Positions 40,961-61,831 of a stretch of DNA of 64,000 nt are shown in pieces (position 1 is the stretch's first letter; every line of letters begins with the position of its first letter). This DNA is from an uncultured Bacteroidales bacterium (GTDB taxonomy: Bacteria; Bacteroidota; Bacteroidia; Bacteroidales; WCHB1-69): positions 41,442 to 105,441 of the forward strand of contig OMYJ01000015.1 in NCBI GenBank assembly GCA_900315245.1. The letters are read 5' to 3'. A model generated the notes under the pieces. It was given only the letters and a program-made list of their open reading frames with translations, was not told where the DNA came from and did not search any database. Position numbers and translations under genes: made by a program.

Positions 40961-40998
40961 GCGGCAAAGATAACACGGGACTGTGCCAATTCGTGGCA
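40961..40998 (-). promoter_or_regulatory. -7 promoter + palindromic operator (copy 1)
   Basis: Plus strand: GCGGCAAAGATAACACGGGACTG TGCCA ATTCG TGGCA. Confidence 0.75.
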
Positions 40999-41128
40999 TT
41001 GTGGTGCCCGCAGACCTACGGCCTGCCTGTGAAAGTGAACAGTGAATAGTGATCAGTGAACAGGGACTTTACGCGACAAGGCGCCCTGTCAGGAGTGCAG
41101 GGGGAGGGTATGAAAAGGGTTAAGGGTT

Positions 41129-41371
41129 TCACCCCGCGGAAAACCGCAAGGGGGATTTCCTGCTACCATTGCCGCCATACAAGATGGTAATCGGGGCGAA
41201 ATCCAGAGACTCGAGGCAGTGGTCTGACAGAACGCCAAAGGGGTAATTGCCCAAGACGTCCTTGTGGAAACAGGATTCCTCCAAAGAGGCCGGATCATAA
41301 TGGTAATAGTCAATCAGGACCTTGTCCTCTTGTTCAAAAGTGGGGAATTTGAATGATTCGAGATAGATCAT
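41129..41371 (-). pseudogene. 5' stump of a predicted ABC-type ATPase (COG3910-like), broken at Walker A
   Basis: MIYLESF...YPF..L....LDFAPITILYGGNGS then runs into a repeat element. Confidence 0.65.
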
Positions 41372-41416
41372 ATGGGGGGATTGGAGGTGGAGAAGAGGGA
41401 AAGAGAAAAATGGAGA

Positions 41417-42031
41417 TTATTCGCAAATCTTGTTTTGACAATTGTCGCAACACTTTTTGTCCGATTCTTCAGGATACGCTTGAGTGATGAGGCAATCGAG
41501 GTAGTGGAACAACTTTTGGATATCTATTTTCCTTGATTCATTTAAACAATTGACAACTTCAAAGTAATTGGTGTTCGCTGATGTGTCTCCACCATTTTCT
41601 TTTTTGATTTTTGGGCTCTCCAAGTTTTCAGTTATCAAGCAGATAGTGTTATTCCCAAAGTACCTGAATAAATGATTTTTATACATCATATCTGTCCACA
41701 ATCCACGATAATACACCTGTCCATATATCTCTATTTTTTCATCTCCCCAAGCTTGAGGAACGCATACTTCTATTTCGCTGATTTTGCTGACGACATTGTT
41801 AAATTTGTTTCTCACGACGTTTCCAACTTGAAATACATACCCGTTATTAGGTTCACTTTCCCTTCTTTCATATGTAGTCAACACATTAGGGCAATTAGGC
41901 CAATCTAATAACCAGACATCATTCGTTTTGATTGATTCTAAAATATTCTTAAGGTCTGTACATAAAACTAAATCTATCTTATTATTAGCCATATAGTTAT
42001 TTTTATTTTCTAAAAATGTTTTCTTCATCAC
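41417..42031 (-). CDS. Hypothetical protein (AT-rich)
   Basis: 204-codon open frame; start may be 41992 (MANNK). Confidence 0.5.
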   Translation of the reverse strand: MMKKTFLENKNNYMANNKIDLVLCTDLKNILESIKTNDVWLLDWPNCPNVLTTYERRESEPNNGYVFQVGNVVRNKFNNVVSKISEIEVCVPQAWGDEKIEIYGQVYYRGLWTDMMYKNHLFRYFGNNTICLITENLESPKIKKENGGDTSANTNYFEVVNCLNESRKIDIQKLFHYLDCLITQAYPEESDKKCCDNCQNKICE

Positions 42032-42064
42032 AAAATTGTAACTTATTCAAAGTGATTATTTTAT

Positions 42065-42292
42065 CTACACCGCCCCAAGCTTTGCATTTTCGTCCTTTTC
42101 AATCATCTCAATGCACTTTTCGATGTCGGTGATAATTCCTTTCATAAAGTCGATTTTCTCCTTTTTTGTGTAGCCTTGTACGGTAAATGGAAACTTGGAT
42201 GTGTCAAATTGATATGCTAGGAGTTCGCGGATGGAAAATTCTATTATTTCATCGTTTAAAAAGGCGAATAAATCATCATTAAAGCCATTCAT
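42065..42292 (-). CDS. Small acidic hypothetical protein (paralogue of 51572..51787)
   Basis: EFSIRELL...EKIDFMKGIITDIEKCIE versus EFTIGELI...EKIGFLKELIADIEECIE. Confidence 0.6.
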   Translation of the reverse strand: MNGFNDDLFAFLNDEIIEFSIRELLAYQFDTSKFPFTVQGYTKKEKIDFMKGIITDIEKCIEMIEKDENAKLGAV

Positions 42293-42302
42293 AAATATTT
42301 CT

Positions 42303-42331
42303 CTGGTACGTGTCGGGCGCAACTGTTGGTG
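42303..42331 (-). promoter_or_regulatory. Conserved 29-nt 5' leader (copy 1, promoter-less)
   Basis: Sense CACCAACAGTTGCGCCCGACACGTACCAG, 10 nt above the ATG. Confidence 0.6.
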
Positions 42332-42352
42332 TTCCCTATTTTACGAAACTTA

Positions 42353-43426
42353 CTATGGTAGCTCTTTTCGCATTTCCTCTAATTTGTTGATTCTATTGAG
42401 GATGATGTCGCCAATATCTGTGTGTTTGTGGAGGTAATCACCAAGAAGGCGGCCTACCACGTCGTTAACATAGTCGTGAATGGTCTGCCCTTCGGGCTGC
42501 ATCATTTCAGAACCGAGGCGGGTTTGCGCTCCTGTTTCATAAAGTGGTTCTTGCACCTTGATAGAGATGACGGCAGAAACAGCGTTGCAGATATCGTCTG
42601 TTTCATACCACTTGCCGAAATAAGTGCGGATTGTCATGGCCAATGCGTTGCGGAAGGCATTTTGGTGTGTGCCACCTCGCGGCGTATAATGTTTGTTGAC
42701 AAAAGAATAAAATTCCTCTCCACAATTTCGAGTGGTGTGAGTGAATACAAACTCAAACTTTTCGTCTTGAAGGTGAATCGGCGCGTAAAGCATCTCCTCC
42801 CGTTTCGTCTTATGGCAAAGGAGGTCGTACAAACCGTTCTTGGAAAGGATCTTCTGTCCATTGTAGTTGATGGCGAAACCTTTGTTTAAGCAAGCATAGT
42901 TCCGCAATGTGTTGGCAATGCGCTGTGACAACCACTGGTATTTACCGAGAAGGCTGTCATCGAGTGTGAAGGAGATGGAAGTGCCGGAACGCTGGTTGCT
43001 TACTTCTACGGAGGATTCTCCGATGAGCTTACCGTAGGAAAACTCGACCGTCTTCGTCTTCCCGTCCCGGAAACTCTGTATCTTGAAGTGGCTTGATAGG
43101 GCGTTGGTTAGCATGAGAGCCCAACAACCTTCATTTGGGTTTAAATTTGTCACACGGCACATCAGCTTATCAAATGGCATACCACATCCATAGTCGCGCA
43201 CGTTCACTACATTGTCTTTGATGGTCACATCGATGTTTTGGCTATGTCCCTGTTCGGATTGTTCAACAGAGTTGTTAATTACCGCTTTCAAAAGTTCATG
43301 GATAGCATCATTTCGTGAGTCGCTATCTCCTATTCGCCTGCCAAGGAAAAAACCAGGGCGTGAGCGGACATGCTCATACCAGATTGTCCTGATGTCGTCA
43401 TCATTGTTTTTGTCACGTTTTTCCAT
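42353..43426 (-). CDS. Truncated, degenerate ParE/GyrB N-terminal (GHKL + transducer) homologue
   Basis: EHVRSRPG, VRDYG.G.P, NALS, SFVN..YT..GGTH..AFR and SIKVQEP; ends at RKEL before TOPRIM. Confidence 0.8.
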   Translation of the reverse strand: MEKRDKNNDDDIRTIWYEHVRSRPGFFLGRRIGDSDSRNDAIHELLKAVINNSVEQSEQGHSQNIDVTIKDNVVNVRDYGCGMPFDKLMCRVTNLNPNEGCWALMLTNALSSHFKIQSFRDGKTKTVEFSYGKLIGESSVEVSNQRSGTSISFTLDDSLLGKYQWLSQRIANTLRNYACLNKGFAINYNGQKILSKNGLYDLLCHKTKREEMLYAPIHLQDEKFEFVFTHTTRNCGEEFYSFVNKHYTPRGGTHQNAFRNALAMTIRTYFGKWYETDDICNAVSAVISIKVQEPLYETGAQTRLGSEMMQPEGQTIHDYVNDVVGRLLGDYLHKHTDIGDIILNRINKLEEMRKELP

Positions 43427-43462
43427 AGTTTTGTCGAATTTGATGAATGGATTTAATTTCTG

Positions 43463-43500
43463 GCGGCAAAGATAGTGCGTAACTGTGCCGATTCGTGGCA
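43463..43500 (-). promoter_or_regulatory. -7 promoter + palindromic operator (copy 2)
   Basis: Plus strand: GCGGCAAAGATAGTGCGTAACTG TGCCG ATTCG TGGCA. Confidence 0.75.
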
Positions 43501-43606
43501 TACCCAACCCCGACCGATTCAAAGGCCTGTCCATTGGTAGTGAGCAGTGGGATCTTAAAGCGAAAACACACCGTCAGGGGTGCAGGGCCTGGTAGAATGT
43601 AGTTGT

Positions 43607-43863
43607 TTACGTCTCTGCATTCTCCATGGCTGGCGCATTGCTTTGCCTTATGTGGTGGAGGTGTATCAGTTCGTCGCACATGGCAATTTTTTCTTCCAAA
43701 TCAGTCGGTTTTCCAAATCTTCAATTTCACCTTCACAGTCATACATTCTGACAGACCAGCGTTCCCTGATGGTGATAATTTCTTCGATCCGCTCCTTTAT
43801 GAGGTCGGTCTGTTCCTCAAAGGAGAGGTTTTTCAGGTCTTTTTTGAATTGTATAATGTTCAT
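43607..43863 (-). pseudogene. Small coiled-coil-like ORF, frameshifted relative to the copy at 52680..52874
   Basis: Near-identical DNA to 52680..52874 but with 62 extra nt, so the DLEEKIAMCDELIHL tail is out of frame. Confidence 0.55.
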
Positions 43864-43974
43864 ATTATCGTTTGTTTTGTTTTGCTTTTACTCTGTTGAA
43901 CGCTTTTCGGGAACGCATCTAATGTCTCCAATCCATAACAGTGGCAGAGCTCGTGCTGATGCAGGCGAAAACCT

Positions 43975-44607
43975 CTACCAGTCCGGCTCAAACTCCCAGT
44001 CCACCGGCTTCCCGTTCAGGTCGAAAACCTGGCACGTGTCGCACCCACCAACCTTATAGGCACCCGAGTCCACCAATGTGTTGGGAACATATACTTCTTT
44101 GAGAAGATGGGCTTCCTCAAGGCACCACGTATCAACACCTTTTATACATTTAGGTAGCCTGATGGATGTGAGGCGTTCTGAAAAATACTCTCTCAAGCCC
44201 TCCCCGATATATTCAACAAAAGAATATTCGTCCTCAACGTCAACCATATCGGGTAAGTCAATGTGTCCGGACAGTTGGTGCATCTCCTCACCCCAGAATA
44301 ATTGTACGACATTGTCATAACTGTAGATTTCCAGCGTGTTGTTATGGTTTGCAGCGTAGATGGATCGTTCACTTTTTTCGGAAGGGAAGAATTTTTGGAT
44401 ATAACAGCCCGTGTACGCATCAAGATCCTCGGAAACGTATCGTACACCCAGCAGTTGCTCTTCCGGATAGGGTTGTTCTTTGCCGTTTACGGACAATACC
44501 AAACGGTCGGGCTGCAATTTTGATATGCACCCGCCAATTGTCCCATCTGGAATCTCAATTTCCACAAAGTCCCCGACCTGCAGGTTTTCGTTAATGTACT
44601 TCAACAT
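43975..44607 (-). CDS. Sm/SH3-like barrel + BspA-type LRR hypothetical protein (paralogue A)
   Basis: MLKYINENLQVGD start; LPD.V......V.YIG...LTSIRLP...L.EVYVP LRR_5-like segment. Confidence 0.65.
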   Translation of the reverse strand: MLKYINENLQVGDFVEIEIPDGTIGGCISKLQPDRLVLSVNGKEQPYPEEQLLGVRYVSEDLDAYTGCYIQKFFPSEKSERSIYAANHNNTLEIYSYDNVVQLFWGEEMHQLSGHIDLPDMVDVEDEYSFVEYIGEGLREYFSERLTSIRLPKCIKGVDTWCLEEAHLLKEVYVPNTLVDSGAYKVGGCDTCQVFDLNGKPVDWEFEPDW

Positions 44608-44625
44608 ATCTTTGCTATTTTTAAT

Positions 44626-44663
44626 GCGGCGAAGATAACACGGGACTGTGCCAATCTGTGGCA
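44626..44663 (-). promoter_or_regulatory. -7 promoter + palindromic operator (copy 3)
   Basis: Plus strand: GCGGCGAAGATAACACGGGACTG TGCCA ATCTG TGGCA. Confidence 0.75.
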
Positions 44664-44866
44664 TAGCTGCGATGCCCGCAGACCTACGGCCTGCCAGCGC
44701 ACCGCCAGCTGTCTTTGGGAAACACGTCCCGCCAGCAACAATACCCCGTTAGGGGTGCAGGGCTTGGTAGAATGGGGCGAGCACGGGGGAATGCGCACGC
44801 CGTCAGGTGTGCGGGGAGAGGTGTGGAAAGGAGGTGAGGGGTTCACCCCGTGGAAAACCGCGAGGA

Positions 44867-44908
44867 GGATTTCCCGCTGCCGTTGCCGCCATACAGGATG
44901 GTGATGGG
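44867..44908 (-). pseudogene. Walker A stump of the COG3910-like ATPase
   Basis: Translates to PITILYGGNGSGKS, followed by the same repeat junction as at about 41150. Confidence 0.55.
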
Positions 44909-44961
44909 GGGTGACATCCAAGTAATGGACAAAGGAAGAAATCGGTGTGCCGAATATTTGC

Positions 44962-47133
44962 TTATAATATGTCAATGAGCTTTTTTATGATATCGATTAT
45001 TGTTTCCTTATCCATGTCGGTTTTTTCGTATCGTTCCCCGTTCCACTGGAGTTTAAATACAGAGGGTAAATCTCCAAATGTGTTTTCTGTATGACCTTTA
45101 CGCCGGAAAAGATTGATAGAATATTTGTCATCGCCTGTGTGCCAAGCAGCAATTGCCCAACCAGAATGTGCTTTGTTTTCATCAATGACGGCACATGTGT
45201 TATCGTATGAATAAAACCTTAGATCTTTGTCAGGGAGAAGAATTATCTTTTTTAGTTCCAGATATAATCTATAAGATTTCAAATTCGCATGTTCACCACT
45301 TGCTCTATCTCCCTTAATTAATGTCCAACCCAAATCATCTCCCCACCACTGAATCTTTTTCTGTTCACAATATTTGAGTAGTTCGGGTATCTCTACAAAC
45401 TCATCGAAATCTTTTCCCGAAGAATTGTTCTTAATCATTTGGTATTGGGCTGCGTAGATGTCATTAATATCCAATTCATCCAAAAATGATTTGAATTTAT
45501 CAACATTATCATTTATAAGCGCCTTCCAGTCTTCATAATCCCAAGCAAAACTCCAATTAGTGTACCCCTTAAATTTTCTGGGATAATCCTTCAAATCGCG
45601 AGTCAGCAAAGCCCTGCGGGTTACATCAAGTTCCTCATATTCCAAATCATCATGGAACACTTTATCAAATTTGACACGATAAATTTTGAATAAATTATAA
45701 TCAAACTCGCCATCTGTTATTGCCCATTCAATCATAGGAAGTATTTCTCCACACCATAATTTATATCCTTCTTCCTTCCAGAAAGACTCTTCTATTTCAT
45801 CTCGATTTTCTGCATTTCGGTAGATTTCTAATTTTGTTTTCGTTTCTTCAGTCAGTAAGGACTTTTTTACACTTTCTAATTCTAAAATCGAACATATGTC
45901 TGCATTGGGCATTTTTTTGATAACTCTGATTGCCTCGGGCAAAACCTCGGATATTGCTTTTGTTACATTTGGTACAAGTGCAAGATTCCTAAAAAACATC
46001 TTTACCCGCCTTATTTTTCTAACTGTCGCATTAGGAAATCGATTGATGTACTCAAGCACTGGCAAAAAACTGAACCATACAACCTGCGAGTTGCCATCTA
46101 TATCAGGAAATAACCAATTTTTATTATTGGGGAATACTGCATCTTTCTCACAAAACAAACGTTTAGAAACAATCTCAAAATAGTTATCTATTTTATCAAA
46201 TTCAATGTTCTCTAAATCAAACTTGTATGTTCCATCTTTCTGAATTCGCTTGAATTCATTGCTTTCTGCATCTAAATTTAACAACATTATCCATCGGAAG
46301 AATTCTTTTAATCCATTGTCGGCTGTATCATTCGTGCCTCTGTTCTTCCAAAAGAATTGTTCCCATTGTTCCCATTTTTGAGCACATTCATCTTGCTTCT
46401 CCTTTGCTTGTCGACCAATGAGTAATGGTTTTAAGTTCTGTGTTGCCGACAATGGCTCACCAGTAGTATTGATAACAACAAATGTTTCTTCTCCTTTTGT
46501 ACGATTTTCCATGTCATAATAAAGGAATGAGAGGTTTTCGATAATATATTTCCCAAACGATGCACAATCAATACTTTTCTCATTGATTATAGTTTCAATC
46601 ATTTCCATTGCCGCAATCATACTCTGAATGCTTGGATCTAAATCGTAATCTTTGAAGTACCACGACTGCCGTTTGATATCAGAAACAGCAATATCCTTGT
46701 TTTCAATGAAAAAGAATCTGGTCAAGTCACTTAAAAAATAAAGCGAACTTTCTCTTATGGCATATTGCAAATAAGGTTCCCAATCGTCATTCTCTTCTGT
46801 TTCAGAAATCAACAAACGCCTGAAAGCATCGTCGGCTTTCCTGTTGAGCATTCCGAGTAGCAAAAACAATGTCGTGATTCGCTGTTGTCCATCGCAAAGC
46901 TGAATGTGTCCAAGTGGAGCTTCGTAGCCGTATAAAAGCCCCAAATTCAGTTCTTTGTCTTGATTATCGGTAATGTTTTCGATAAATCTTTCAACAAGAT
47001 TTTTGCCATCTTTATCAAATGTTGTTCCCCAGCAATAATCCCGTTGCAAATCAGGTATGATGATTTTGTCGTCTTTCGAAAACAAATCTGTCAGTTTGTA
47101 GGCTTCTCCTGTTGATAACTTATTGTATTCCAT
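44962..47133 (-). CDS. DUF262 (GmrS/ParB-Srx-like) domain protein
   Basis: IPDLQRDYCW, CDGQQRITTL and FVVINTTGEPLS. Confidence 0.8.
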   Translation of the reverse strand: MEYNKLSTGEAYKLTDLFSKDDKIIIPDLQRDYCWGTTFDKDGKNLVERFIENITDNQDKELNLGLLYGYEAPLGHIQLCDGQQRITTLFLLLGMLNRKADDAFRRLLISETEENDDWEPYLQYAIRESSLYFLSDLTRFFFIENKDIAVSDIKRQSWYFKDYDLDPSIQSMIAAMEMIETIINEKSIDCASFGKYIIENLSFLYYDMENRTKGEETFVVINTTGEPLSATQNLKPLLIGRQAKEKQDECAQKWEQWEQFFWKNRGTNDTADNGLKEFFRWIMLLNLDAESNEFKRIQKDGTYKFDLENIEFDKIDNYFEIVSKRLFCEKDAVFPNNKNWLFPDIDGNSQVVWFSFLPVLEYINRFPNATVRKIRRVKMFFRNLALVPNVTKAISEVLPEAIRVIKKMPNADICSILELESVKKSLLTEETKTKLEIYRNAENRDEIEESFWKEEGYKLWCGEILPMIEWAITDGEFDYNLFKIYRVKFDKVFHDDLEYEELDVTRRALLTRDLKDYPRKFKGYTNWSFAWDYEDWKALINDNVDKFKSFLDELDINDIYAAQYQMIKNNSSGKDFDEFVEIPELLKYCEQKKIQWWGDDLGWTLIKGDRASGEHANLKSYRLYLELKKIILLPDKDLRFYSYDNTCAVIDENKAHSGWAIAAWHTGDDKYSINLFRRKGHTENTFGDLPSVFKLQWNGERYEKTDMDKETIIDIIKKLIDIL

Positions 47134-48841
47134 AATATTCTTTAATTTCGTTGATGAATTTATTTTTGTTTTCTATAATTTCATTGATGCTCCACTCTTT
47201 TTTTGCAAAGACGGAAATGGTGTGCAACAGATGACGGCTTCTGAAAGGCTTTTCTGCATCAACATTGAAATAAATTGATTTTTTGTCATCAAAAGATTTC
47301 GCTCCAAATCCAGAGTTCTCGTTTTTATATAGCAACACAAGATTGCCTATACAATGTTCATTGCCATTCCCTTCAAAATTGGCTTCGTCAATTAGTCCTT
47401 CTGTGTCTAATTCTTCAATTTCAACACCATCACCTCTAATGTATCTATTCCCCTCATCGATGGTTTCAATTTTATAGAACTTTGATTTTGGATAGATATG
47501 TTCCAAAGATCTTTCCTTCCAAATACTGAAATCAAATTTTCTGCCCAATTTGGAATCTTCCTCAATATTTCGTCTCAACAACTGCATAAAAGCATAAGAA
47601 TTATCTTCATTGTATAGATTGTTACTACACAAGGATTTATACATTTCGCCTTTAGCATTTTCAATAGCTTCACTGTTGTTTTCTACAATTATTGTATGCG
47701 AAAGACCTAGAAAAACAAGCTTGAAGTACTCTTCAATGTCTTTTTCTTCGTTAGTAGCAAAGTACCATTCTACAAAACGTTCTCTGTCTTCCTTTCCGTG
47801 TAAAGTAAGTATCGCTCCTATTTTGTTGTGAAGCTTGTTGGAATCGCTGATGCTATTGAACACATCTTCAAATTTTTTCTGCAAATGGCGCAAATCGTAA
47901 AAAACATTTTTTGCCAACTTTTCGTTATTGTCGCCACGCAACAATTTATCTCTAAAAACTTCAAAATATTTACCTCCCTTATCAATTTTGCCTCCTTTTG
48001 ATTTAAGATACGTCTTTACGAGAAGGCCCATAACACTTTTCTCTGTATGATAAAAAGTTGCTACTTCTGGTTGATTCCACCAGTAAAGCCATTTGTCCCA
48101 TTCCCGCGCATATTTGCTACGTAAAAGGTTCTGTTCCCAATGAACGGATTCAACCTCTTTGACTTTATGAAAAATGGATTCCAACAATTCATTGCTGGAA
48201 ATATTATTAAAGCTAAATGTATTCTCCGCAGAAACCAAACGTAACATTTCGGCTTTTATGATTTCCTCTGTTTTCATATCAGCCTTGCTGCCATTCATCA
48301 TAGAGAAAACCAAAGTGGCTTTGTCTTCAGGAATGGTAATGTATAAGAACTTTACATTGTCAAGTATTTTGTTAATATCCCAATCCTTTGCTTTGTCAAT
48401 AATTAATCTGACACTCTTTTTAAAATAATATATGTCTTGAAACTCTTCTTGTTGATTATCAGCGCACAAATCCTTTAACTCTTCGTTGGTTTTCCCCCTT
48501 AAAGATTTGAGAAATTCATCCGATTTAGTCCTAACGGGATAATTCAAATTAATATCACCTTGATACCCCAAACAGGTTAACAACAAATAGAAGAATGTGG
48601 TTCTTTGCTGTCCGTCAATGAGAATTATTTCCTTTTCATTTTCTGTAACAGTAATACCTTGCATGAACAATTCGGTATCGTTATCCAAACTGTTTTGAAT
48701 GCTTTCCAAAACATATTCAACGGAATTTTTTTCCGAATCTCTTGATTTTCCCCAAATGTATCCACGCTGATAATTGGGGATGACAAAAACTTTCTGCTTA
48801 TCTAAGAATTGTCTGAGTGTTATTGTCGCATTTTTACTCAT
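47120..48841 (-). CDS. DUF262 + DUF1524 (HNH) GmrSD-like restriction endonuclease
   Basis: IPNYQRGYIW, IDGQQR, FSMMNG; SLEHIYPK and IGNLVLL...NS.FG.KSF..KK. Confidence 0.8.
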   Translation of the reverse strand: MSKNATITLRQFLDKQKVFVIPNYQRGYIWGKSRDSEKNSVEYVLESIQNSLDNDTELFMQGITVTENEKEIILIDGQQRTTFFYLLLTCLGYQGDINLNYPVRTKSDEFLKSLRGKTNEELKDLCADNQQEEFQDIYYFKKSVRLIIDKAKDWDINKILDNVKFLYITIPEDKATLVFSMMNGSKADMKTEEIIKAEMLRLVSAENTFSFNNISSNELLESIFHKVKEVESVHWEQNLLRSKYAREWDKWLYWWNQPEVATFYHTEKSVMGLLVKTYLKSKGGKIDKGGKYFEVFRDKLLRGDNNEKLAKNVFYDLRHLQKKFEDVFNSISDSNKLHNKIGAILTLHGKEDRERFVEWYFATNEEKDIEEYFKLVFLGLSHTIIVENNSEAIENAKGEMYKSLCSNNLYNEDNSYAFMQLLRRNIEEDSKLGRKFDFSIWKERSLEHIYPKSKFYKIETIDEGNRYIRGDGVEIEELDTEGLIDEANFEGNGNEHCIGNLVLLYKNENSGFGAKSFDDKKSIYFNVDAEKPFRSRHLLHTISVFAKKEWSINEIIENKNKFINEIKEYYGIQ

Positions 48842-48927
48842 ATTTTAAATTTTATATAACTCAAAGCGTTTTACTTACTTAATTGATCTTTCTGCCGAAG
48901 TCCATTAAACAGAATCCGAAGAAAACG

Positions 48928-48944
48928 ACCCCGCAAAACTACAA
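48928..48944 (-). promoter_or_regulatory. Second-class promoter element (copy 1)
   Basis: ACCCCGCAAAACTACAA = sense TTG-TAGTTTTG-CGGGGT (TAnnTTTG), identical at 51544 and 55445. Confidence 0.6.
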
Positions 48945-48971
48945 TTTTCCCCTTTCCCCTCCACCTCTTTC

Positions 48972-49655: not shown

Positions 49656-49682
49656 AATACTGATATTTTTTGATGAAACATG

Positions 49683-49927: not shown

Positions 49928-50006
49928 CTGGTACGTGTCGGGCGCAACTGTTGGTGAATACTAAAGTTGCGGCAAAGATAAATCCCGACTGTGCGAGTGC
50001 GTGGCA
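49928..50006 (-). promoter_or_regulatory. 29-nt leader (49928-49956) + -7 promoter/operator (49969-50006; operator copy 4)
   Basis: Plus strand: GCGGCAAAGATAAATCCCGACTG TGCGA GTGCG TGGCA. Confidence 0.7.
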
Positions 50007-51792: not shown

Positions 51793-51871
51793 CTGGTACG
51801 TGTCGGGCGCAACTTTTGGTGAATACTAATGATGCGGCAAAGGTAAATCCCGACTGTGCCAGTGCGTGGCA
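51793..51871 (-). promoter_or_regulatory. 29-nt leader (51793-51821) + -7 promoter/operator (51834-51871; operator copy 5)
   Basis: Plus strand: GCGGCAAAGGTAAATCCCGACTG TGCCA GTGCG TGGCA. Confidence 0.75.
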
Positions 51872-52527: not shown

Positions 52528-52565
52528 GCGGCAAAGATAGTGCGGGAGTGTGCCGATTCGTGGCA
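52528..52565 (-). promoter_or_regulatory. -7 promoter + palindromic operator (copy 6)
   Basis: Plus strand: GCGGCAAAGATAGTGCGGGAGTG TGCCG ATTCG TGGCA. Confidence 0.75.
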
Positions 52566-53007: not shown

Positions 53008-53021
53008 AGTCGTTTGTTTTT

Positions 53022-53059
53022 GCGGCAAAGATAACACGGGACTGTGCCAATCTGTGGCA
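53022..53059 (-). promoter_or_regulatory. -7 promoter + palindromic operator (copy 7)
   Basis: Plus strand: GCGGCAAAGATAACACGGGACTG TGCCA ATCTG TGGCA. Confidence 0.75.
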
Positions 53060-53189: not shown

Positions 53190-53873
53190 TTACAAAAAGA
53201 TTGAAATTTGGGATAACACTTGTTCAGCACTACAATCATAGTTTCTAATACTATCAACAGCAATCCTTAACCCTAATAACTGTAATTGACATTTTTCACG
53301 GGTGTTCACACACATTTCCTTGATTTTATCTTTGTCCAATACAAATCCACTTAGCAAAAGTTCTGAAAATGCTTTTCTTACGATTACTGTATCAGTCTCT
53401 CCAAATACTATGCCCGTAAGAATGGATTTCATGATTTCAACGATGCGATAATCAGTATCATTAATTTCAATCTTCTTCAGTGCACTTTTGGCAATTTCAT
53501 TCAGAACAATAGAGAATTCTTCTGATTTCGGATCATATCCAACAGTTTCTTCTTCATTTGTGGATATATGTAATGAGGTATCATCAAAATTTGAATTATC
53601 CAATCCGAATTTCAAACAAATTGAAAAGATAGACGCATCTATCTGATCGAATAGACTTTCCATTCTATTCAAAGTATTCTGCTCACTCTCATCTGGTTCC
53701 CTGCCATCGTTGATGAAATCCACATATTTGACTAATTCATCCTCTAGTGGGGGCAACTCTTCAGATTTAATCTTGTCAATTTGTTCCTGCAAATTGCTTA
53801 AGTCTATATCAGAAAGTTGTTTGAGACTTTCCAAACGATCGGCAAGCGATTCCAATTTATTGATGAGTTCCAT
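53190..53873 (-). CDS. Acidic helical hypothetical protein (AT-rich)
   Basis: 227-codon open frame; no family recognised. Confidence 0.55.
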   Translation of the reverse strand: MELINKLESLADRLESLKQLSDIDLSNLQEQIDKIKSEELPPLEDELVKYVDFINDGREPDESEQNTLNRMESLFDQIDASIFSICLKFGLDNSNFDDTSLHISTNEEETVGYDPKSEEFSIVLNEIAKSALKKIEINDTDYRIVEIMKSILTGIVFGETDTVIVRKAFSELLLSGFVLDKDKIKEMCVNTREKCQLQLLGLRIAVDSIRNYDCSAEQVLSQISIFL

Positions 53874-53973
53874 TTTTCAAATTATTTATGAAAATAGTTT
53901 CTATGTGTCTATTTTGCTGCTGAAAAGACAGTATGAGACCGAATCAGTTTTTGGCAGAGTGTATATTAATCTG

Positions 53974-55356: not shown

Positions 55357-55444
55357 TATTTTAGGTTTAAGAACAGTTCGATTTTATAACTTGTTTTTAT
55401 TATTTTTTTTGCTCCAAAGCCGAAAACGGTCCTCCCCAAAAACA

Positions 55445-55461
55445 ACCCCGCAAAACTACAA
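55445..55461 (-). promoter_or_regulatory. Second-class promoter element (copy 3)
   Basis: ACCCCGCAAAACTACAA upstream of the nuclease fusion gene. Confidence 0.6.
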
Positions 55462-55488
55462 CTTTTCCCTTTCCCCTCCACCTCCTTC

Positions 55489-56298
55489 CTACAAATCTCC
55501 CAACGGATACCTGAACCTCCCCTTCATCTCCTGCAATATCTTGCGGAAGGTTTCCGGGAGGCGGGACCACATTTGGCGGGCGATCTCTTCGGGGATTTCT
55601 TTGTAGTAGGCTTCGGCGATGCCGCCGGTGATGCAGGCGAGGGTGTCGCTGTCGCCGCCGAGCGAGACGGCCAGGCGGATGGCACTCTCGAAATCCGTGC
55701 TGTCGAGGAAGGCGATGATGGCTTCCGGCACCGTGCCCTGACAACTCTCCTGAAACGTGTACCCGGGACGGATCTCCTCGCAGGTGCGGCTCAGGTCGTA
55801 GCCGAAACGCGTTTCCACATACTCCTTGATCTCCGCTTTGGTCTTGCCGGTCCTGCCCAGGAAGATGGCTGCGGCCACGGCCTGCGCCCCCTTGATGCCC
55901 TCCGGGTGGTCGTGGGTGATGGCGGCCGAGATCTCCGCCACCCGCAAGGTCTCCTCCAGCGTGCCGAACGCCCGGCCCACGGCACTCACCCGCATCGCCG
56001 AGCCGTTGCCCCATGAGTTGTAGGGCACTCGCTCGCGCCCGCTGAACAGCCACCGGTAGAACGACCCGCCGTAGCCGCCGAGGGGGTTGGGATATTCGTG
56101 TGCAAAGCGCACCATCGAGGCCTCCAACTCCTTGTGGGTGTGGTGCTCGTCGCGCAACAGCCAGTCGGCCACCGCAAAACTCATAATGGAATCATCAGTG
56201 AATTCACTTCTCTCCGAAAACAGAGGGAAATCGGTAGTCTTGATGTTGTCGAATTCGTATATCGATCCGACGGTGTCTCCTATTATTGCTCCTAACAT
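55489..56298 (-). CDS. ADP-ribosylglycohydrolase (DraG/ARH family)
   Basis: GAIIGDTVGS, FTDDS, GNGSAMR, THDHPEG and GGDSDT. Confidence 0.9.
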   Translation of the reverse strand: MLGAIIGDTVGSIYEFDNIKTTDFPLFSERSEFTDDSIMSFAVADWLLRDEHHTHKELEASMVRFAHEYPNPLGGYGGSFYRWLFSGRERVPYNSWGNGSAMRVSAVGRAFGTLEETLRVAEISAAITHDHPEGIKGAQAVAAAIFLGRTGKTKAEIKEYVETRFGYDLSRTCEEIRPGYTFQESCQGTVPEAIIAFLDSTDFESAIRLAVSLGGDSDTLACITGGIAEAYYKEIPEEIARQMWSRLPETFRKILQEMKGRFRYPLGDL

Positions 56299-56507
56299 AG
56301 TGTCTTACTTTTAGTTGTTCTGATCTTTAAAATGAATTTGAAGTGCAAAATTACAATATTTCTCTTTTACTGCCCGGTCCCCCATCATTGCAAAGCGTCA
56401 AGCGGAATCTCCTGCCGCTCGCAATGTTGCGGTTTCTCCTACAGGTATTGTCGGTTTGTTCGCAGAACCAGTTCCCGTCGGTTTTTCTGTTTCTTGAGCA
56501 AATGGTT

Positions 56508-57770
56508 TTATTCGGCGGCTTTGAAATTGAATACGGGTTTGATGATATTCTCCACGCTTACCGTGTCCTGTATGTTGGCAAGAATCTCATCCTTAGGCTT
56601 ATACGCCATAGGGGCTTCATCAAGGGTGTCGTTGGTCACGGTTTCGCTGTAGATGCCTTCCATCGAGCTTTTGAAGTCTTCCATCCGCAGTTCCTTGAAC
56701 GCCTTCGCCCGGCTCATCGCACGCCCCGCCCCGTGCGGCGCTGAGCAGTTCCAGTCGGCGTTGCCTTTGCCGATGCAGATGAGCGAGCCGTCGCGCATGT
56801 TGAGCGGAATGATGCACCGTTCGCCAGCTTTGGCAGAGATGGCACCTTTTCGGATCAGGTTGTCGTCACTGATATAGTTGTGTACGCTTTCAAAAGCACC
56901 GTCAGCAACTCCGCAAGCGGAATGTTTTTCCTCAAGGAAGTCTGTGATCAGGTCGGCAATCAGTCTGCGGTTGAGGCGCGCCCAACGCTGGCAAAGCCGC
57001 ATGTCGTGCAGGTACTCGTTGCGCGGCTCACCCTCCAGATAACAGAGGTCGGGCGGCACAGGCGGGGTCTGCATCTTGAAATCGGAGTGCAGTTTGGCAA
57101 TGGCGGCCTGAATCTCCTTTCTCCGGCCTTGGCTTTTGTATTCCTCTATGATTCGTTTCTGTTGTTCCATCACCTTGTCCCACCCCGAAAGCAGTTTCCG
57201 CGCCTCCTTTTGGTACAGGTCGGCCACCTGTTTGCCCAGGTTGCGGCTTCCCGTGTGAATTACCAGATACCATTTCCCCTGTTCATCGCGGTCGAGCTCA
57301 ATGAAATGGTTGCCACCGCCCAGGGAGCCGATAGATTTATCCAAACGTTTGCTCTCCTTGAGAAGTCTGTAGCTGTACAGCTCACGAATAATGGCTTTGG
57401 CCTCGGAATAGACCTCCATATACTTGTGGGGCAGCGGCAGGTATTGGTCACTGCGGAAGTCGCGCCCCGACGGTATGGCCTTCAGGATGAAGTTGTTGAG
57501 CGCGTGGAAATCAATTGATTCCGGCACTTCGAGCGGTTGCACGAGGATGCCGCAGCCGATGTCAACTCCCACAATGTTGGGGATCACTTTGTCGCCCAAG
57601 TTGCCCGTAAAACCGATCACGCAGCCCGCGCCGGCATGCACATCGGGCATTATACGGATTTTGCAGTCGGCGAACACCTTGACGGAAAGCAGGCGCTGAA
57701 TTTGTTCAAGCGCTAACTCCTCTATGTTGTCCGTGAAGATTTTAGCGTTGTGATTGGGAATGGTTTTCAT
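56508..57770 (-). CDS. rtcB: RtcB RNA 2',3'-cyclic phosphate/5'-OH ligase
   Basis: MPDVHAG.GC.IG, VGVDIGCG, GGGNHFIE, IHTGSR, HNY, RKGA, GAGR.MSR and DEAPMAYK; start moved to MKTIPN. Confidence 0.92.
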   Translation of the reverse strand: MKTIPNHNAKIFTDNIEELALEQIQRLLSVKVFADCKIRIMPDVHAGAGCVIGFTGNLGDKVIPNIVGVDIGCGILVQPLEVPESIDFHALNNFILKAIPSGRDFRSDQYLPLPHKYMEVYSEAKAIIRELYSYRLLKESKRLDKSIGSLGGGNHFIELDRDEQGKWYLVIHTGSRNLGKQVADLYQKEARKLLSGWDKVMEQQKRIIEEYKSQGRRKEIQAAIAKLHSDFKMQTPPVPPDLCYLEGEPRNEYLHDMRLCQRWARLNRRLIADLITDFLEEKHSACGVADGAFESVHNYISDDNLIRKGAISAKAGERCIIPLNMRDGSLICIGKGNADWNCSAPHGAGRAMSRAKAFKELRMEDFKSSMEGIYSETVTNDTLDEAPMAYKPKDEILANIQDTVSVENIIKPVFNFKAAE

Positions 57771-57960
57771 TTTTGAATAGGAATTTGTGCAAAGATAACA
57801 ATTGTTTGATAATGTTGAGCCGGCAAAGATACCCATCTTTTCCATCTGTTCCCTGTGCACGATGCACCATTCCGCAAGACGCGAAGCGTCTGGCGGAATC
57901 TCCGTTTCGCAAGGACGCGGAACAGCATAATATGGAATCCTGATTGCACGATTGCGAAAC

Positions 57961-58659
57961 CTACCTCCAATCATCCACCTCTGCCTCCAAATCCAGATAA
58001 TCCCCTAACGTCCTCCCTGTCGGGATGAGTTCTTCTTCGTCGGTCTCAACCATCACGGTGAGGAAGTCTCGCAAGACATTGCACCCCGCCTCGCCGGTTT
58101 CGGTCGTGAAACAATTCTGCGGGTTGTCCAGGACACCGAAGCAGAACCACGACCACAGGCGGCCGAACACCACTTTCACGGCGAACCAAAGCGCGAACAT
58201 GCCGCAGGTGATCTCTTTAGGGACAACAGGAAGGCCAAATTCCTCGTTTATCAGCTCGCTTAGGGACTTGTCGCTTTGGAGGAACGGCACCTCCTTGGTC
58301 TCGGGATCCATCATGGCGGACAGGCACCGCTCTGACAGATAATGCTTGTTTCGGCTCAGTTGTGCACCCACGTCCACGAAGTTGCCGTATTCATCCTTCT
58401 CGCAACGCAACAGCATCTCAAATACAAAGCCCATTCTTGAAAACTCGTATCTTGGTGCATCCGGATTGGGGTTGATGAATGTCCAGAAGGCTTCAAACTG
58501 AAGTTTTCCCTCCATACAGTTCCACTCGTCAGCGATTTTCTGCTTGTAAACAAGGGTCGTGCAGCTGCAGTTGTTCTCGTGCAGCAGTAAGGCCTTGATG
58601 AGTTTCAGGTCGTTGGTGAAGTCGGATACGGAAGATTTGGTTTCGTCCAGCATGTCCAT
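57961..58659 (-). CDS. Hypothetical protein
   Basis: 232-codon open frame, acidic; no family recognised. Confidence 0.55.
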   Translation of the reverse strand: MDMLDETKSSVSDFTNDLKLIKALLLHENNCSCTTLVYKQKIADEWNCMEGKLQFEAFWTFINPNPDAPRYEFSRMGFVFEMLLRCEKDEYGNFVDVGAQLSRNKHYLSERCLSAMMDPETKEVPFLQSDKSLSELINEEFGLPVVPKEITCGMFALWFAVKVVFGRLWSWFCFGVLDNPQNCFTTETGEAGCNVLRDFLTVMVETDEEELIPTGRTLGDYLDLEAEVDDWR

Positions 58660-58680
58660 TCCTTTTGCAATTTAATTAAA

Positions 58681-58700
58681 GGCGGGAATTTGCTCCCGCC
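58681..58700 (-). terminator. Probable intrinsic terminator
   Basis: Sense GGCGGGA-gcaaat-TCCCGCC followed by TTT, just after the 47-aa ORF. Confidence 0.6.
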
Positions 58701-58707
58701 CTTCGTT

Positions 58708-58851
58708 CTACTTCTTCGGCACGAACACGTAGGTCTTGTTGCCTATCGATTTTGCGGTGCCGCCCATCTTGTGTGCTGCGTTCATCAGTTCGCCGGACGT
58801 GGAGTACGTCTGGCTCATGCCGTTCGGAAAATTTAATGTGTACATCATCAT
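58708..58851 (-). CDS. 47-aa hypothetical protein
   Basis: MMMYTLNFPNGMSQTYST.GELMNAAHKMGG...; flanked by leader and terminator; a stump LMNAAHKMGG recurs at 49345-49374. Confidence 0.6.
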   Translation of the reverse strand: MMMYTLNFPNGMSQTYSTSGELMNAAHKMGGTAKSIGNKTYVFVPKK

Positions 58852-58855
58852 AACC

Positions 58856-58934
58856 CTGATACGTGTCGGGCGCAACTGTTGGTGAATACTGAAAACGCGG
58901 CAAAGATAAGGCAGGGGTGTGCCAGCGCGTGGCA
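58856..58934 (-). promoter_or_regulatory. 29-nt leader (58856-58884) + -7 promoter/operator (58897-58934; operator copy 8)
   Basis: Plus strand: GCGGCAAAGATAAGGCAGGGGTG TGCCA GCGCG TGGCA. Confidence 0.75.
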
Positions 58935-58936
58935 CT

Positions 58937-58964
58937 GTAGAGACGCGCCACGGCACGTCTCTAC
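58937..58964. repeat. GTAG-type REP-like palindrome
   Basis: GTAGAGACG-cgccacggca-CGTCTCTAC, same arms as 13194-13221. Confidence 0.75.
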
Positions 58965-58975
58965 ATGCCACGTCC

Positions 58976-60748
58976 CTACGCCTGGAATCCGATACTTCCC
59001 CCGTTGCACCCGTTCCCGATCTTCTCGTGACGGCACAGCTCCTCGATTTCCGCCAAAGTAGGGCGGGTGCCGTGAAGCACTTCCTCCATCACGACCTTGC
59101 GGACGATGTTGTCGATCTCGCCGCCGGAGAAGTCGAACTTCGTGGCTAACGCCCGGCAATCCTCGTCGGGGAGCCACTCCAACTTGCTCTTCCAGATGCT
59201 CTGCTTGGCCTCCACCGTGGGCTGCCCGAACTCGACCTTGAACAGGAATCGGCGGGCGAAGGCGCTGTCGAGGTTGCCGGTGAGGTTGGTGGTGGCGATG
59301 AGGATGCCGTCGAGCTTCTCCATCTCCTCCAAGATGATGTTCTGGATGGCGTTCTCGGTCTGCGCCACACTGCTGGAGCCGCTGGCATTGTTGATGTTCT
59401 GGCGGCTGCTCAACAGAGCGTCGGCCTCGTTGAAGAGCAGGATGGGTTTCTGCTTCTCCTTCTCGCAAAGTCTGCGGTAGTTGGTGAAGATGCCCTTCAC
59501 GAGTTTCTGACTCTCACCGTACCAGCAGCTCTTTGCCGCGCTGATATCCACGTGGCACACCGCCCGCCCCGTGATGCGTGCAATCTGCATGGCTGTCTCG
59601 GTCTTGCCGGTGCCGGGCAGACCGTAGAACAAGGCGGCAACACCTTTCGGCATTGCCAGTTTCTCTAATTGATTTTGCAGTTCTGAAAATTTCTCTTCCA
59701 AAAGGTTTTCTTTGAGAAGTTCTAACTGCTCGGATTGTTCTTTGTCGTAGAACATGGACTTTTCCGCGATTTTGTCAGGATAAATCAAACTCTGACTGCG
59801 ATTGTCGGTGCTGAAAAGGTCGTAGTCTTCCTCTAAAAACAGCTGCTTACCCTTGTCGGTGAGAACGATGGATGCATCGGAAAACATGCTGCCTTGAGTT
59901 ACCTCAATGAGGCCGGCTTTTTGCAGTTCGTGCTCCCCTTCCTTGAGTTCTTTGGCCACATCGATTCTTAGGCACGTTTCTGCATAAATGTCTTTCAGGG
60001 TACACTCTATGTCGCTTTCACGATCACGAGTGGTGACGAAATCGTCGCAGACTTCGTAAAAAAGTGTGCGAACTTCTACGTCAAAATTCAGTTTGAGGAA
60101 GTTTTTTACAAAAGTGAGATTTTTGTGCTGCTTTTCCAAAGGTCCTATTTGTCTAAAGAGACGCAAGCTGGACACTTTCTCATTCTCCCGGCTTTCGATG
60201 AGATTCGAAACTGCATTTACGAACTTATAACGGTCAAAATCAGGTGCTTTAAGCGTTTTCAAATCCAACTTTTTGTCGTCGAAAATGGCCTCTTTCACCT
60301 GCGGATTAATAATATAGTCGTTTCTTTCACTGAACTGATGTGTCGTTTCAGCCAAAAAGATGCGTTTGCGCACCAGTTCTTCAAAGTCGTTTCTCATCAT
60401 CAGAAACTCCATGCTTTTGATGCCGAAAAACGAACAAATGTTGTCCTTGTCGAAGTCCTTGCGGTCAACATTTTGGGCGAAACCGGCCACGAAGATGGCT
60501 GCCTGTAACGGTGTAACAGCTAAAAAATCAGCAAGCTGTTTGTTTTTCAGTACCACTTGATCCACCATTTCGGATTTGTAACGAGGCTCGTCCGACACAA
60601 ACGATTCTCTTCTTTCACTGCGGCGTCTTGGCCGTTCATATTCCGGTAGTGTGCCCGGTGCAATGGCGTTAATCAATTGCGTTTCAGAGTCTTCCATCTG
60701 TACGGCGAGGAAGCTCAGAATCTGAATAAGGTTGTTTTTTTTCATCAT
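58976..60748 (-). CDS. AAA+ ATPase with large N-terminal region
   Basis: YGLPGTGKT (Walker A), LLFNEAD (Walker B variant), TTNL...LDSAFARRF and C-terminal IGF. Confidence 0.9.
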   Translation of the reverse strand: MMKKNNLIQILSFLAVQMEDSETQLINAIAPGTLPEYERPRRRSERRESFVSDEPRYKSEMVDQVVLKNKQLADFLAVTPLQAAIFVAGFAQNVDRKDFDKDNICSFFGIKSMEFLMMRNDFEELVRKRIFLAETTHQFSERNDYIINPQVKEAIFDDKKLDLKTLKAPDFDRYKFVNAVSNLIESRENEKVSSLRLFRQIGPLEKQHKNLTFVKNFLKLNFDVEVRTLFYEVCDDFVTTRDRESDIECTLKDIYAETCLRIDVAKELKEGEHELQKAGLIEVTQGSMFSDASIVLTDKGKQLFLEEDYDLFSTDNRSQSLIYPDKIAEKSMFYDKEQSEQLELLKENLLEEKFSELQNQLEKLAMPKGVAALFYGLPGTGKTETAMQIARITGRAVCHVDISAAKSCWYGESQKLVKGIFTNYRRLCEKEKQKPILLFNEADALLSSRQNINNASGSSSVAQTENAIQNIILEEMEKLDGILIATTNLTGNLDSAFARRFLFKVEFGQPTVEAKQSIWKSKLEWLPDEDCRALATKFDFSGGEIDNIVRKVVMEEVLHGTRPTLAEIEELCRHEKIGNGCNGGSIGFQA

Positions 60749-60766
60749 AATTACATTAATTTTGAC

Positions 60767-60808
60767 GCTGCAAAAATAAACCACCACTGTGCCATTCCAT
60801 AGCACAGT
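60767..60808 (-). promoter_or_regulatory. -7 promoter + extended operator for the AAA ATPase (operator copy 9)
   Basis: Plus strand: GCTGCAAAAATAAACCACCACTG TGCCA TTCCA TAGCA CAGT; extended palindrome ACTGTGC-N9-GCACAGT. Confidence 0.7.
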
Positions 60809-60853
60809 GAAAAATTCTGAATGAAAAACTTTGGCAACATAATTTTTCAACTC

Positions 60854-60887
60854 TGCCATCAACTTTCATACCATTTGCCTATCTTTG
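60854..60887 (+). promoter_or_regulatory. WYL gene promoter with operator half-site
   Basis: TATCTTTG at 60880-60887; TGCCA at 60854, 26 nt upstream, the same offset as in the nine boxed promoters (second half degenerate, TTTCA). Confidence 0.55.
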
Positions 60888-60913
60888 CCGCGTCGATTTT
60901 AAATCCAACAGTT

Positions 60914-61831
60914 ATGACAAAAGAGCTTATAAGAAAGTATATTTGGCTGATAGACACGGTGAACCAAGCAGGATTCGAGGGAATCACGTTCAGTACAATT
61001 CGTGACAAGTGGAAACGCAACGACTTGCTTTCTGGTGGGGAGGACTACCCCAAACGCTCGTTCCACAACCATGTGGCGGCGGTGCACGAGCTGTTCGGCA
61101 TCGAGATTGCCTGTCACAAAAGCACCAATTCCTACTATATCGCCAACAGTGGCGACCTGAAGGACAGCTCTGGTTTCAAAGGGTGGCTCCTCGATGCGCT
61201 GTCGCTCAACAGCCAACTGGAGGAGAGCAGCCAGCTGAAAGACCGCATCCTCCTGGAGGAGATCCCCTCCGGCAAGGAGTTCTTGCCCACCATCCTGGAG
61301 GCGATGCGCGATAATAAAATGCTGACATTCAGCTATAAACCGTTCTGGGTAGAAGATGACTACGTGTCGAATTTCTACCATGTGGAACCCTACGCGCTGA
61401 AGGTCTTCAAACGTCGGTGGTACCTGTTGGGCAAGTACGGCGACAGTCCGCTGAAAGTCTATGCGCTGGATAGGATGCAGGATATCGACATTGAGTTTGA
61501 GAGCTTCAATCTGCCCGCCGACTTCAACGCGGCAGAGTTCTTCGGCACCTGCTTCGGGGTGATGATGACTGAGGAGGAACCGCAGCTGATCAGGCTGAAG
61601 GTGGACGCCTTCCAGTCGAAATACTTGCGCACGCTGCCGTTGCACCCGTCGCAAGAGGAGGTCGAGCGCACGGAGGACTATTCCATCTTCACCTACTTTC
61701 TCCGTCCCACCTTCGACTTCATCCAAGAGTTGCTCTCGCTCGGCATCACCGCCGAGGTGCTATCTCCCAAGACGTTGCGCAACGAGATCGCCCGCATCGG
61801 CAAGACGGTCTGGAAGCACAACGGAAAGTAA
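60914..61831 (+). CDS. WYL-domain transcriptional regulator (wHTH-WYL-WCX)
   Basis: N-terminal wHTH (KYIWLIDTV...RSFHNH...ELFGIEI), VEPYALKVFKRRWYL..., YALDRM and C-terminal LPLHPSQ...LLSLG...EVLSP..LR. Confidence 0.92.
   Translation: MTKELIRKYIWLIDTVNQAGFEGITFSTIRDKWKRNDLLSGGEDYPKRSFHNHVAAVHELFGIEIACHKSTNSYYIANSGDLKDSSGFKGWLLDALSLNSQLEESSQLKDRILLEEIPSGKEFLPTILEAMRDNKMLTFSYKPFWVEDDYVSNFYHVEPYALKVFKRRWYLLGKYGDSPLKVYALDRMQDIDIEFESFNLPADFNAAEFFGTCFGVMMTEEEPQLIRLKVDAFQSKYLRTLPLHPSQEEVERTEDYSIFTYFLRPTFDFIQELLSLGITAEVLSPKTLRNEIARIGKTVWKHNGK

Follow-up and report, generated by a model that had tools for sequence, protein, structure and literature searches.

The closest described relatives of the system discussed here are transcription regulators with a WYL domain. 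The DriD dimer binds CGxC-N7-GxCG, with a site in the own promoter of 68 of 69 homologues (PMC10853764), and its sites lie over the -35 position, always equally far from the -10 element, in promoters that have no -35 element (PMC13004042). DdaA binds CGWCA-N5-TGWCG (PMC12392091). PafBC acts through a -26 element in hybrid promoters without a -35 (PMC8635444), and the SiwR homodimer, which needs the -26 region and controls adjacent genes, recognizes a 19-bp imperfect palindrome between -35 and -10 (PMC10693628). BrxR-family proteins and CapW are defence-system repressors with palindromic sites in their own promoter regions (PMC9122601, PMC9122589). Here we analyse a window of 64,000 nucleotides (C6:41442-105441 of a 3.05-Mb, 21-contig assembly) and, within it, an island of genes whose promoters share one palindrome, the box, together with an adjoining WYL regulator gene whose product is the candidate reader of that box. 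Because the nearest DNA matches to the window are bovine, sheep and goat gut metagenomes, its source is an uncultured rumen Bacteroidales metagenome-assembled genome (MAG). Unprefixed positions are those of the window.

The sequence-only reading of this DNA had listed nine minus-strand promoters carrying the palindrome at an invariant distance from the promoter core, and all nine sites are present where it placed them. The motif TGCCA-N5-YGGCACA-N9-TAnnTTYG occurs on the minus strand between 40.9 and 60.8 kb in seven exact and two one-mismatch copies; the latter, at 49992 (TCGCACA) and 60790 (TGCTA), keep the same 9-nt spacer to TAnnTTYG. Searched as TGTGCCR-N5-TGGCA, the palindrome has seven exact copies in the window, all on one strand at 40982-58934, where shuffled sequences lead one to expect 0.02. 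Every exact copy reads aTGCCAc-N4-YGGCACA on the minus (sense) strand; exactly 9 nt beyond it stands the -7 promoter box of Bacteroidetes, TAtCTTTGCCGC, with the ATG 25-60 nt further downstream. The whole genome contains nine boxes with at most one mismatch and the 9-nt spacer, 9/9 of them in the island. Spacers of 4-8 and 10-14 nt gave zero boxes genome-wide at 0 or 1 mismatch, and a 15-nt spacer gave one single one-mismatch match. A tenth, weakened box lies in the WYL gene's own promoter (60854-60887, plus strand), its distal half intact and its proximal half degenerate (TTTCATA). Promoters outside the array, those of ligA, a toxin-antitoxin operon and an ATPase, carry a -7 box at 31352, 32817 and 39833 and no palindrome, as had been stated; the palindrome is likewise absent from three promoters within the island that have -7 boxes at 56353, 55458 and 51557.

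The earlier claim that the spacing reflects selection and not only duplication could not stand on the window alone. Some of its modules are near-identical over 60-100 nt, hairpins resembling repetitive extragenic palindromes (REP-like) and leaders included, the pairs 40984/52551 and 44649/53045 are near-identical beyond the box, and local duplication contributes to the island's repeated promoters. Because these modules are partly recent copies, the argument needs other genomes, and with them included it holds. Across 152 genomes of the same family, the full pattern gave 58 matches in 26 genomes and the reversed control pattern 0; when spacers of 4-14 nt were allowed, 9 nt was found in 58/60 matches and 12 nt in 2/60, again with 0 for the reversed control. 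A separate palindrome search, made without regard to any -7 box, yielded 97 palindromes with a -7 box within 40 nt downstream, 95 of them at 9 nt. Among 183 distinct boxed promoters there are 159 different versions of the 9-nt spacer (mean pairwise identity 29%) and 88 of the 5-nt loop. Spacer length is thus conserved and spacer sequence free.

What is conserved across genomes is the two palindrome arms, the spacer length and the -7 box, and not the flanks, the loop or the spacer sequence; the consensus, aCTrTGCCA-N5-TGGCAyAGt, is two-fold symmetric over ~23 bp. Four genomes carry one perfect palindrome that has a -7 box on both sides, each 9 nt away, and stands ahead of two divergent genes, one for an AAA+ ATPase and one for a 169-aa family (G061:C69:9666-9718; G062:C27:10034-10086; G090:C12:159939-159991; G018:C12 ~30356). 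A wider scan, covering one genome per prokaryotic species, found at least 117 loci, almost all in Bacteroidales, plus a handful of likely chance matches from elsewhere; among the matches listed, the groups with the box are Muribaculaceae, Prevotellaceae, Rikenellaceae, Paludibacteraceae, Porphyromonadaceae and Cryptobacteroides. A cultured carrier is Prevotella pectinovora P4-76, with an exact box on contig5. In two genomes, WYL paralogues of 37-38% identity adjoin a variant box, CCCTGCCA-N5-TGGCAGGG, whose -7 box is likewise 9 nt away (G061:C20:18488, 21065; G062:C16:4153, 9203, 11785), which suggests paralogue-specific operators with one common design.

The WYL regulator gene (60914..61831, plus strand) encodes a protein with winged helix-turn-helix (wHTH), WYL and WCX domains, as judged by Pfam, AlphaFold2 (AF2) and Foldseek. 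Its true start is M32 of a 336-aa open reading frame (ORF), giving 305 aa, with its own -7 box ahead. The WYL domain (PF13280, E 2.4e-10) and the C-terminal WCX dimerisation domain (PF25583, E 5.8e-9) both score above the Pfam cut-offs, and the motif RRWYLLG...YALDRM is unchanged in 34 relatives. Pfam returned no HTH match; the N-terminal wHTH is predicted from the AF2 model, which has a moderate mean pLDDT (AF2's per-residue confidence score) of 67, with 76-90 across an N-terminus of helices 3-22, 26-35 and 47-61 and a beta hairpin at 65-76, ahead of the WYL and WCX domains. Foldseek searches with this model ranked DriD highest, along its full length (E 2e-12), followed by PafBC and after it by CapW and BrxR, and sequence matches in the PDB were to the DriD C-domain only. 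Of the contacts that DriD makes with single-stranded DNA (ssDNA), Tyr170 of the WYL motif, one basic and one aromatic residue are kept. The locus holds a single WYL gene, flanked by the AAA+ ATPase gene and dcp, and so does not contain a paralogous pair of the PafBC type.

Four independent lines of comparison support the WYL protein as the reader of the box: own-promoter boxes, association across genomes, recurrence in other families and site geometry. First, each of the 30 WYL orthologues (30 genomes, 60-100% identity) carries a box in its own promoter. This box ends 18-30 nt ahead of the ATG and always has a good distal arm and a proximal arm weakened to TTTCAyA; among the WYL paralogues of this genome the count is 0/3. 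Second, genomes with the exact box are enriched in the regulator: an orthologue is present in 18/26 box-bearing genomes and in 29/126 others (odds ratio 7.5, p = 1e-5), and in 15 genomes boxes lie within ~20 kb of the orthologue on the same contig, with differing genes behind them. Third, among the matches listed from other Bacteroidales families, full boxes stand directly upstream of WYL genes at 35-45% identity (loci L104, L128, L140, L148, L153, L156, L161, L169, L202 and L205). Ten distant genomes tested all have WYL homologues, two of them again with the box at the WYL promoter; no box of this kind turned up for six distant homologues located within operons, and the link between box and WYL protein is therefore clade-specific and not universal to WYL proteins. 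Fourth, the box TGCCA-N5-TGGCA can be written GCC-N7-GGC, the same GNC-N7-GNC geometry as DriD and DdaA sites, and its fixed place over the -35/-33 region agrees with DriD and PafBC promoters. The suggestion that the protein encoded at 60914 reads the box is thus supported by comparative genomics, from which we consider it very probable that the WYL protein binds it.

We propose that the 305-aa wHTH-WYL-WCX protein binds, as a homodimer, aCTrTGCCA-N5-TGGCAyAGt in ten island promoters, its own included, 9 nt upstream of TAnnTTTG, and that it would activate 'hybrid' promoters in the manner of DriD, PafBC and SiwR. Housekeeping RNA polymerase would read the -7 box, and the bound WYL dimer would replace the upstream promoter contacts. 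A ligand on the WYL domain, by analogy probably single-stranded nucleic acid from DNA damage or from attack by phages or mobile elements, would turn the whole array on together, and with it the AAA+ ATPase, RtcB, the GmrSD restriction nucleases, a GHKL ATPase fragment, and leucine-rich repeat (LRR)-like and small proteins. Box and -7 core would form a portable module, such that any gene placed behind it joins the regulon; this portability would be why the cargo changes between genomes. As the best explanation of the whole, a WYL homodimer that binds the palindrome and activates hybrid island promoters, we give this proposal a probability of roughly 0.5.

Given binding, the balance leans towards activation rather than repression because of the invariant register, the DriD/PafBC-like fold, the G+C-rich upstream DNA and the boxed recA genes found elsewhere. 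A+T content is 42% in the 35 nt upstream of boxed promoters and 68% at ordinary promoters of this genome. If the -7 box is taken to occupy about -11 to -4, the palindrome is estimated to cover about -38 or -37 to -21, and its proximal half-site falls near -25. The sequence-only reading had also pointed to the absence of a TTTG at the -33 place. Neither TTTG nor TTG occurs there in the boxed promoters (0/8), but TTTG is found there in only 24 of 341 ordinary promoters of this genome (7%), and we dropped the argument as uninformative. The resemblance of TGGCAC to a sigma-54 promoter, whose GG and GC elements are 10 nt apart (TGGCAC-N5-TTGC), was rejected on spacing and symmetry: the GG of TGGCAC lies ~22 nt from the GC of TTTGC, and the site shows two-fold symmetry and serves both directions.

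Several observations weigh against the proposal. DriD R207 aligns with an alanine in the WYL protein, and the ssDNA-contacting residues are only partly conserved. No recognition-helix residue tracks the variation between TGTG and TATG boxes, and one locus (L045) pairs a TATG box with the TGTG-clade helix. In eight of the 26 genomes with boxes there is no close orthologue; although most of the eight are incomplete MAGs, carry the box at the end of a contig, or retain a truncated WYL remnant (G051), G062 is 98% complete. Metatranscriptome contigs from four runs show that island genes occur in RNA-derived assemblies, as contigs only, from which no transcript starts can be read. WYL regulators so far tied to defence islands, BrxR and CapW, are repressors, and boxed promoters have -7 boxes (TATCTTTGCCGC) of the same quality as those of housekeeping promoters. 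Because these -7 boxes are good and a -33 element is rare in any case, the boxed promoters might fire unaided and be repressed.

The alternative that survives best has the WYL protein on the same box in the role of a repressor, as with BrxR and CapW: placed over -38 to -21, it would block RNA polymerase at otherwise constitutive promoters until a ligand releases it. The precedent of BrxR and CapW, with palindromic sites in their own promoters (PMC9122601, PMC9122589), speaks for it, as do the overlap of the box with the RNA polymerase footprint, -7 boxes near consensus in a genome where the -33 element is dispensable, the single palindrome between divergent promoters, which is a common repressor layout (G061:C69, G062:C27, G090:C12), and the defence-like genes that share the array with WYL (two GmrSD genes, the PD-(D/E)XK nuclease PDC-S26 and the IetA-like AAA). 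A repressor, however, needs overlap and not a fixed helical register, and yet 9 nt separates box and core in 58/60 unbiased matches with spacer sequence left free; the fold is nearer to DriD and PafBC than to CapW and BrxR; and the upstream region is G+C-rich, unlike that of ordinary promoters. We regard repression as unlikely, though a serious contender.

It is improbable that another protein, whether a global regulator of the host or another island protein, reads the box and that the WYL gene is merely a member of the regulon. The eight box-bearing genomes without a close orthologue would fit such a reader, the AAA+ ATPase and the 169-aa family are frequent neighbours too, and in distant Bacteroidales boxes stand ahead of genes far from any WYL gene (recA, a 25-aa peptide). 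Nevertheless, WYL is the only gene that is always boxed (30/30), the loci have no second DNA-binding protein in common, the half-sites are arranged as in known WYL sites, and the distant genomes tested have WYL homologues throughout (10/10), two with the box at the WYL promoter. Least credible is a promoter or junction module of a cassette array, copied by duplication or recombination with no dedicated binding protein, which the near-identical modules of the window (60-100 nt, REP-like hairpins and leaders included) and the shuffling of cargo between genomes would suit, but which is countered by conservation across genomes of only the arms, spacer length and -7 box, and not of flanks, loop or spacer, by the two-fold symmetry of that conservation and by the presence of the element in several Bacteroidales families among the matches listed.

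Within the island, all units leftward of the WYL gene lie on the minus strand, and the convergent housekeeping gene dcp, encoding peptidyl-dipeptidase Dcp (61903-63999, minus strand; NCBIfam 8e-187), forms the right border. Two plus-strand ORFs, 61861-62346 and 62377-63441, were considered as WYL-operon genes and rejected as shadows of dcp on the other strand. The WYL gene's own boxed promoter (60854..60887, plus strand) reads TGCCATCAACTTTCATA-N9-TATCTTTG, with the weakened proximal half-site. Next to it, on the minus strand, is the boxed promoter of the AAA+ ATPase gene (60771..60804; TGCTATGGAATGGCACA-N9-TATTTTTG), whose box sits inside a longer palindrome, CACTGTGC-N9-GCACAGTG. The ATPase itself (58976..60748, minus strand; 590 aa; Pfam AAA 3e-21) has an orphan N-terminal half, weak IetA/TRIP13-like matches in PADLOC and an IteA-like NCBIfam match below cut-off; present in 15/40 related loci, it is the most constant partner gene after WYL. 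Further left, the boxed promoter at 58901..58934 (minus strand) precedes a 47-aa ORF (58708-58851), a 232-aa ORF (57961-58659) and RtcB (56508-57974).

Two units that follow, an ADP-ribosylglycohydrolase (55489-56298) and a protein with DUF6530 and a PD-(D/E)XK nuclease (53974-55356), both on the minus strand, have their own unboxed -7 boxes; they are island members and are not directly boxed. The -7 box at 56353 precedes the ADP-ribosylglycohydrolase gene, and the unboxed promoters at 55458 and 51557 (minus strand) have a common core, GTAGTTTTGCGGGG, ahead of the two PD-(D/E)XK nuclease genes. A 227-aa ORF separates the DUF6530/PD-(D/E)XK protein from ATPase remnants, where a boxed minus-strand promoter (53026..53059) is followed by a 37-aa remnant of an ATPase family (52894-53007) and a 64-aa ORF (52680-52874). 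We note decayed cassettes of this kind at several places: the 37-aa remnant, with an intact box ahead of it, is an N-terminal stub from a family of 314-aa ATPases, a fragment of an ADP-ribosylglycohydrolase lies at 48905-49315, and in another genome (G051:C3 ~32700) a 66-aa WYL remnant persists behind its box.

The next minus-strand boxes precede a 209-aa LRR-like protein (box 52532..52565; gene 51880-52509) and, with a shared leader, a 71-aa ORF (box 51838..51871; ORF 51572-51787). The second nuclease, a PD-(D/E)XK_4 protein (50293-51489, minus strand; PADLOC PDC-S26), has its own unboxed -7 box. Behind the one-mismatch box at 49973..50006 (TCGCACA, minus strand), again with the shared leader, are a 77-aa mini-protein (49683-49916) with BNR-repeat-like motifs recognized by eye and then a 94-aa membrane ORF, the ADP-ribosylglycohydrolase fragment and two GmrSD genes (44962-48841). 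A 210-aa LRR-like paralogue (43975-44607) has its box at 44630..44663 (minus strand), and the box at 43467..43500 (minus strand) precedes a GyrB/ParE-like GHKL ATPase fragment (42353-43426), after which three small ORFs extend to 41129. This fragment, ATPase plus transducer, stands alone on the minus strand without a TOPRIM domain, and a 94-98% identical copy is boxed in another genome (G055). The leftmost box (40965..40998, minus strand) serves a 169-aa protein (40432-40941) and a 107-aa ORF (40096-40419). No other gene stands behind boxes as often as the 169-aa family (25 promoters, 21 loci), whose cluster includes longer members with a GxxGxGKT P-loop.

Three boxed promoters (boxes 49992, 51857 and 58920) have in common a 5' leader of approximately 45 nt, AGTATTCACCAACAGTTGCGCCCGACACGTAyCAGGGwTA, at 58852-58900, 51788-51837 and 49924-49972 on the minus strand. 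It reaches the ATG of three unrelated small ORFs and may serve to control translation or act at the RNA level. Just upstream of boxes there are REP-like hairpins (GTAGAGACG...CGTCTCTAC and GCAGGCCGTAGGTCTGC), at 58937-58966 and above 40998, 44663, 52565 and 53059. The hairpin GTAGAGACG...CGTCTCTAC is so widespread that metatranscriptome contigs stack there, with a summed depth of 150-260 compared with ~5 elsewhere; the depth peak at 58652-58965 was therefore rejected as a signal of transcription, being due to a repeat found in many organisms.

Boxes in related genomes precede genes of at least 35 unrelated clusters; the members that stay constant in these loci are WYL, the AAA+ ATPase and the 169-aa family. 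In this genome no box precedes recA, since zero boxes lie outside the island. An exact box does stand ahead of recA in three other Bacteroidales MAGs (L117, L152 and L165; Pfam RecA 1.6e-136 for L117), and a DnaQ-like exonuclease and a RecA-like ATPase lie behind exact boxes in other Bacteroidales. The L117 genome also has a 43% identical WYL gene with a two-mismatch box in its own promoter. Other boxes precede a conserved 25-aa hydrophobic peptide (MWFAIMVFVGLSVEVLSYLTGGEI) with a Shine-Dalgarno-like GGAGGT (L127, L102, L137, L180, L139, L170, L204, L109, L167, L136 and L164), which resembles damage-induced small membrane proteins that inhibit division, and a second small protein (MNTDNTL...SYxTLxDMI) is found behind the box in nine loci. 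RNA genes behind boxes that seemed to lack an ORF were considered and rejected: an Rfam scan downstream gave nothing relevant, and those boxes precede very short ORFs.

WYL regulators of damage and defence genes are already known, and in kind this system is not new. In the open literature searched we found no WYL regulon described for this phylum, and relative to the searchable papers what is new is the phylum, with its -7-type promoter, the array of up to ten boxed promoters with interchangeable cargo, and the single palindrome used in both directions. Bacteroidales dominate gut and rumen communities, and to our knowledge nothing is known of how they switch on defence islands; the present analysis offers a concrete switch consisting of a 34-nt promoter, one regulator gene and a defined target set. 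Tentatively, gut and rumen Bacteroidales might possess a WYL-driven, SOS-independent alarm regulon built from a portable unit of palindrome, 9 nt and -7 box, in which the WYL dimer replaces a missing upstream sigma contact and genes join or leave by placement. If true, some lineages would carry shuffled arrays for defence, RNA repair and toxin reversal, and in others the regulon would include recA, an exonuclease and the membrane peptide of 25 aa, perhaps an inhibitor of division like DidA or SidA; a DriD/PafBC-like mechanism would then operate in a phylum with a different promoter grammar. The strict register suggests that the replacement of -35 contacts, seen so far in Actinobacteria and Caulobacter, also works with the Bacteroidetes sigma factor. 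The box further singles out dozens of uncharacterised gene families as candidates for a role in stress, defence or repair and, if inducible, would provide a compact regulated promoter for Bacteroides genetics.

Among known systems, DriD, the homodimeric, ssDNA-activated wHTH-WYL-WCX activator of Caulobacter crescentus, is the best full-length structural match. It shares with the WYL protein a GNC-N7-GNC palindrome, a site in the own promoter (68/69 DriD homologues, 30/30 here) and placement of that site over the -35 place at a constant distance from the -10 or -7 element, with no recognisable -35. The two differ in sequence (16-19% identity), in phylum and, with the Bacteroidetes -7 type here, in promoter; the present regulon, moreover, is one contiguous defence and repair island without recA in this genome, and the ssDNA contacts are partly kept. 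PafBC and SiwR of Actinobacteria also use hybrid promoters in which a core element is combined with a regulator element ~26 nt upstream and no -35 ('sigma adaptation'); no structure or biochemistry is known for the Bacteroidetes sigma factor with such a factor. SiwR resembles the WYL protein further in acting as a homodimer on a palindrome, and the proximal half-site here lies at about the same place as the -26 element; PafBC, by contrast, is a heterodimer of two paralogous chains that reads one half-site, whereas here a single gene faces a symmetric site. BrxR and CapW match in domain architecture, in a self-regulated palindromic site and in placement beside variable defence genes, theirs being next to bacteriophage exclusion (BREX) and cyclic-oligonucleotide-based antiphage signalling (CBASS) systems and defence islands, but are weaker structural matches (E 1e-4 to 1e-7, compared with 1e-12) and are known as repressors with one site per locus, not ten promoters in fixed register. 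The sites of DdaA (Moraxellaceae) lie further upstream, off the -26 layout according to its authors, and its regulon is genome-wide; it is alike in its 5-N5-5 palindrome with CA...TG inner ends and in a regulon that mixes repair and defence (PMC12392091). The gene recA belongs to the DriD, PafBC and DdaA regulons, and here it is boxed in three other Bacteroidales MAGs.

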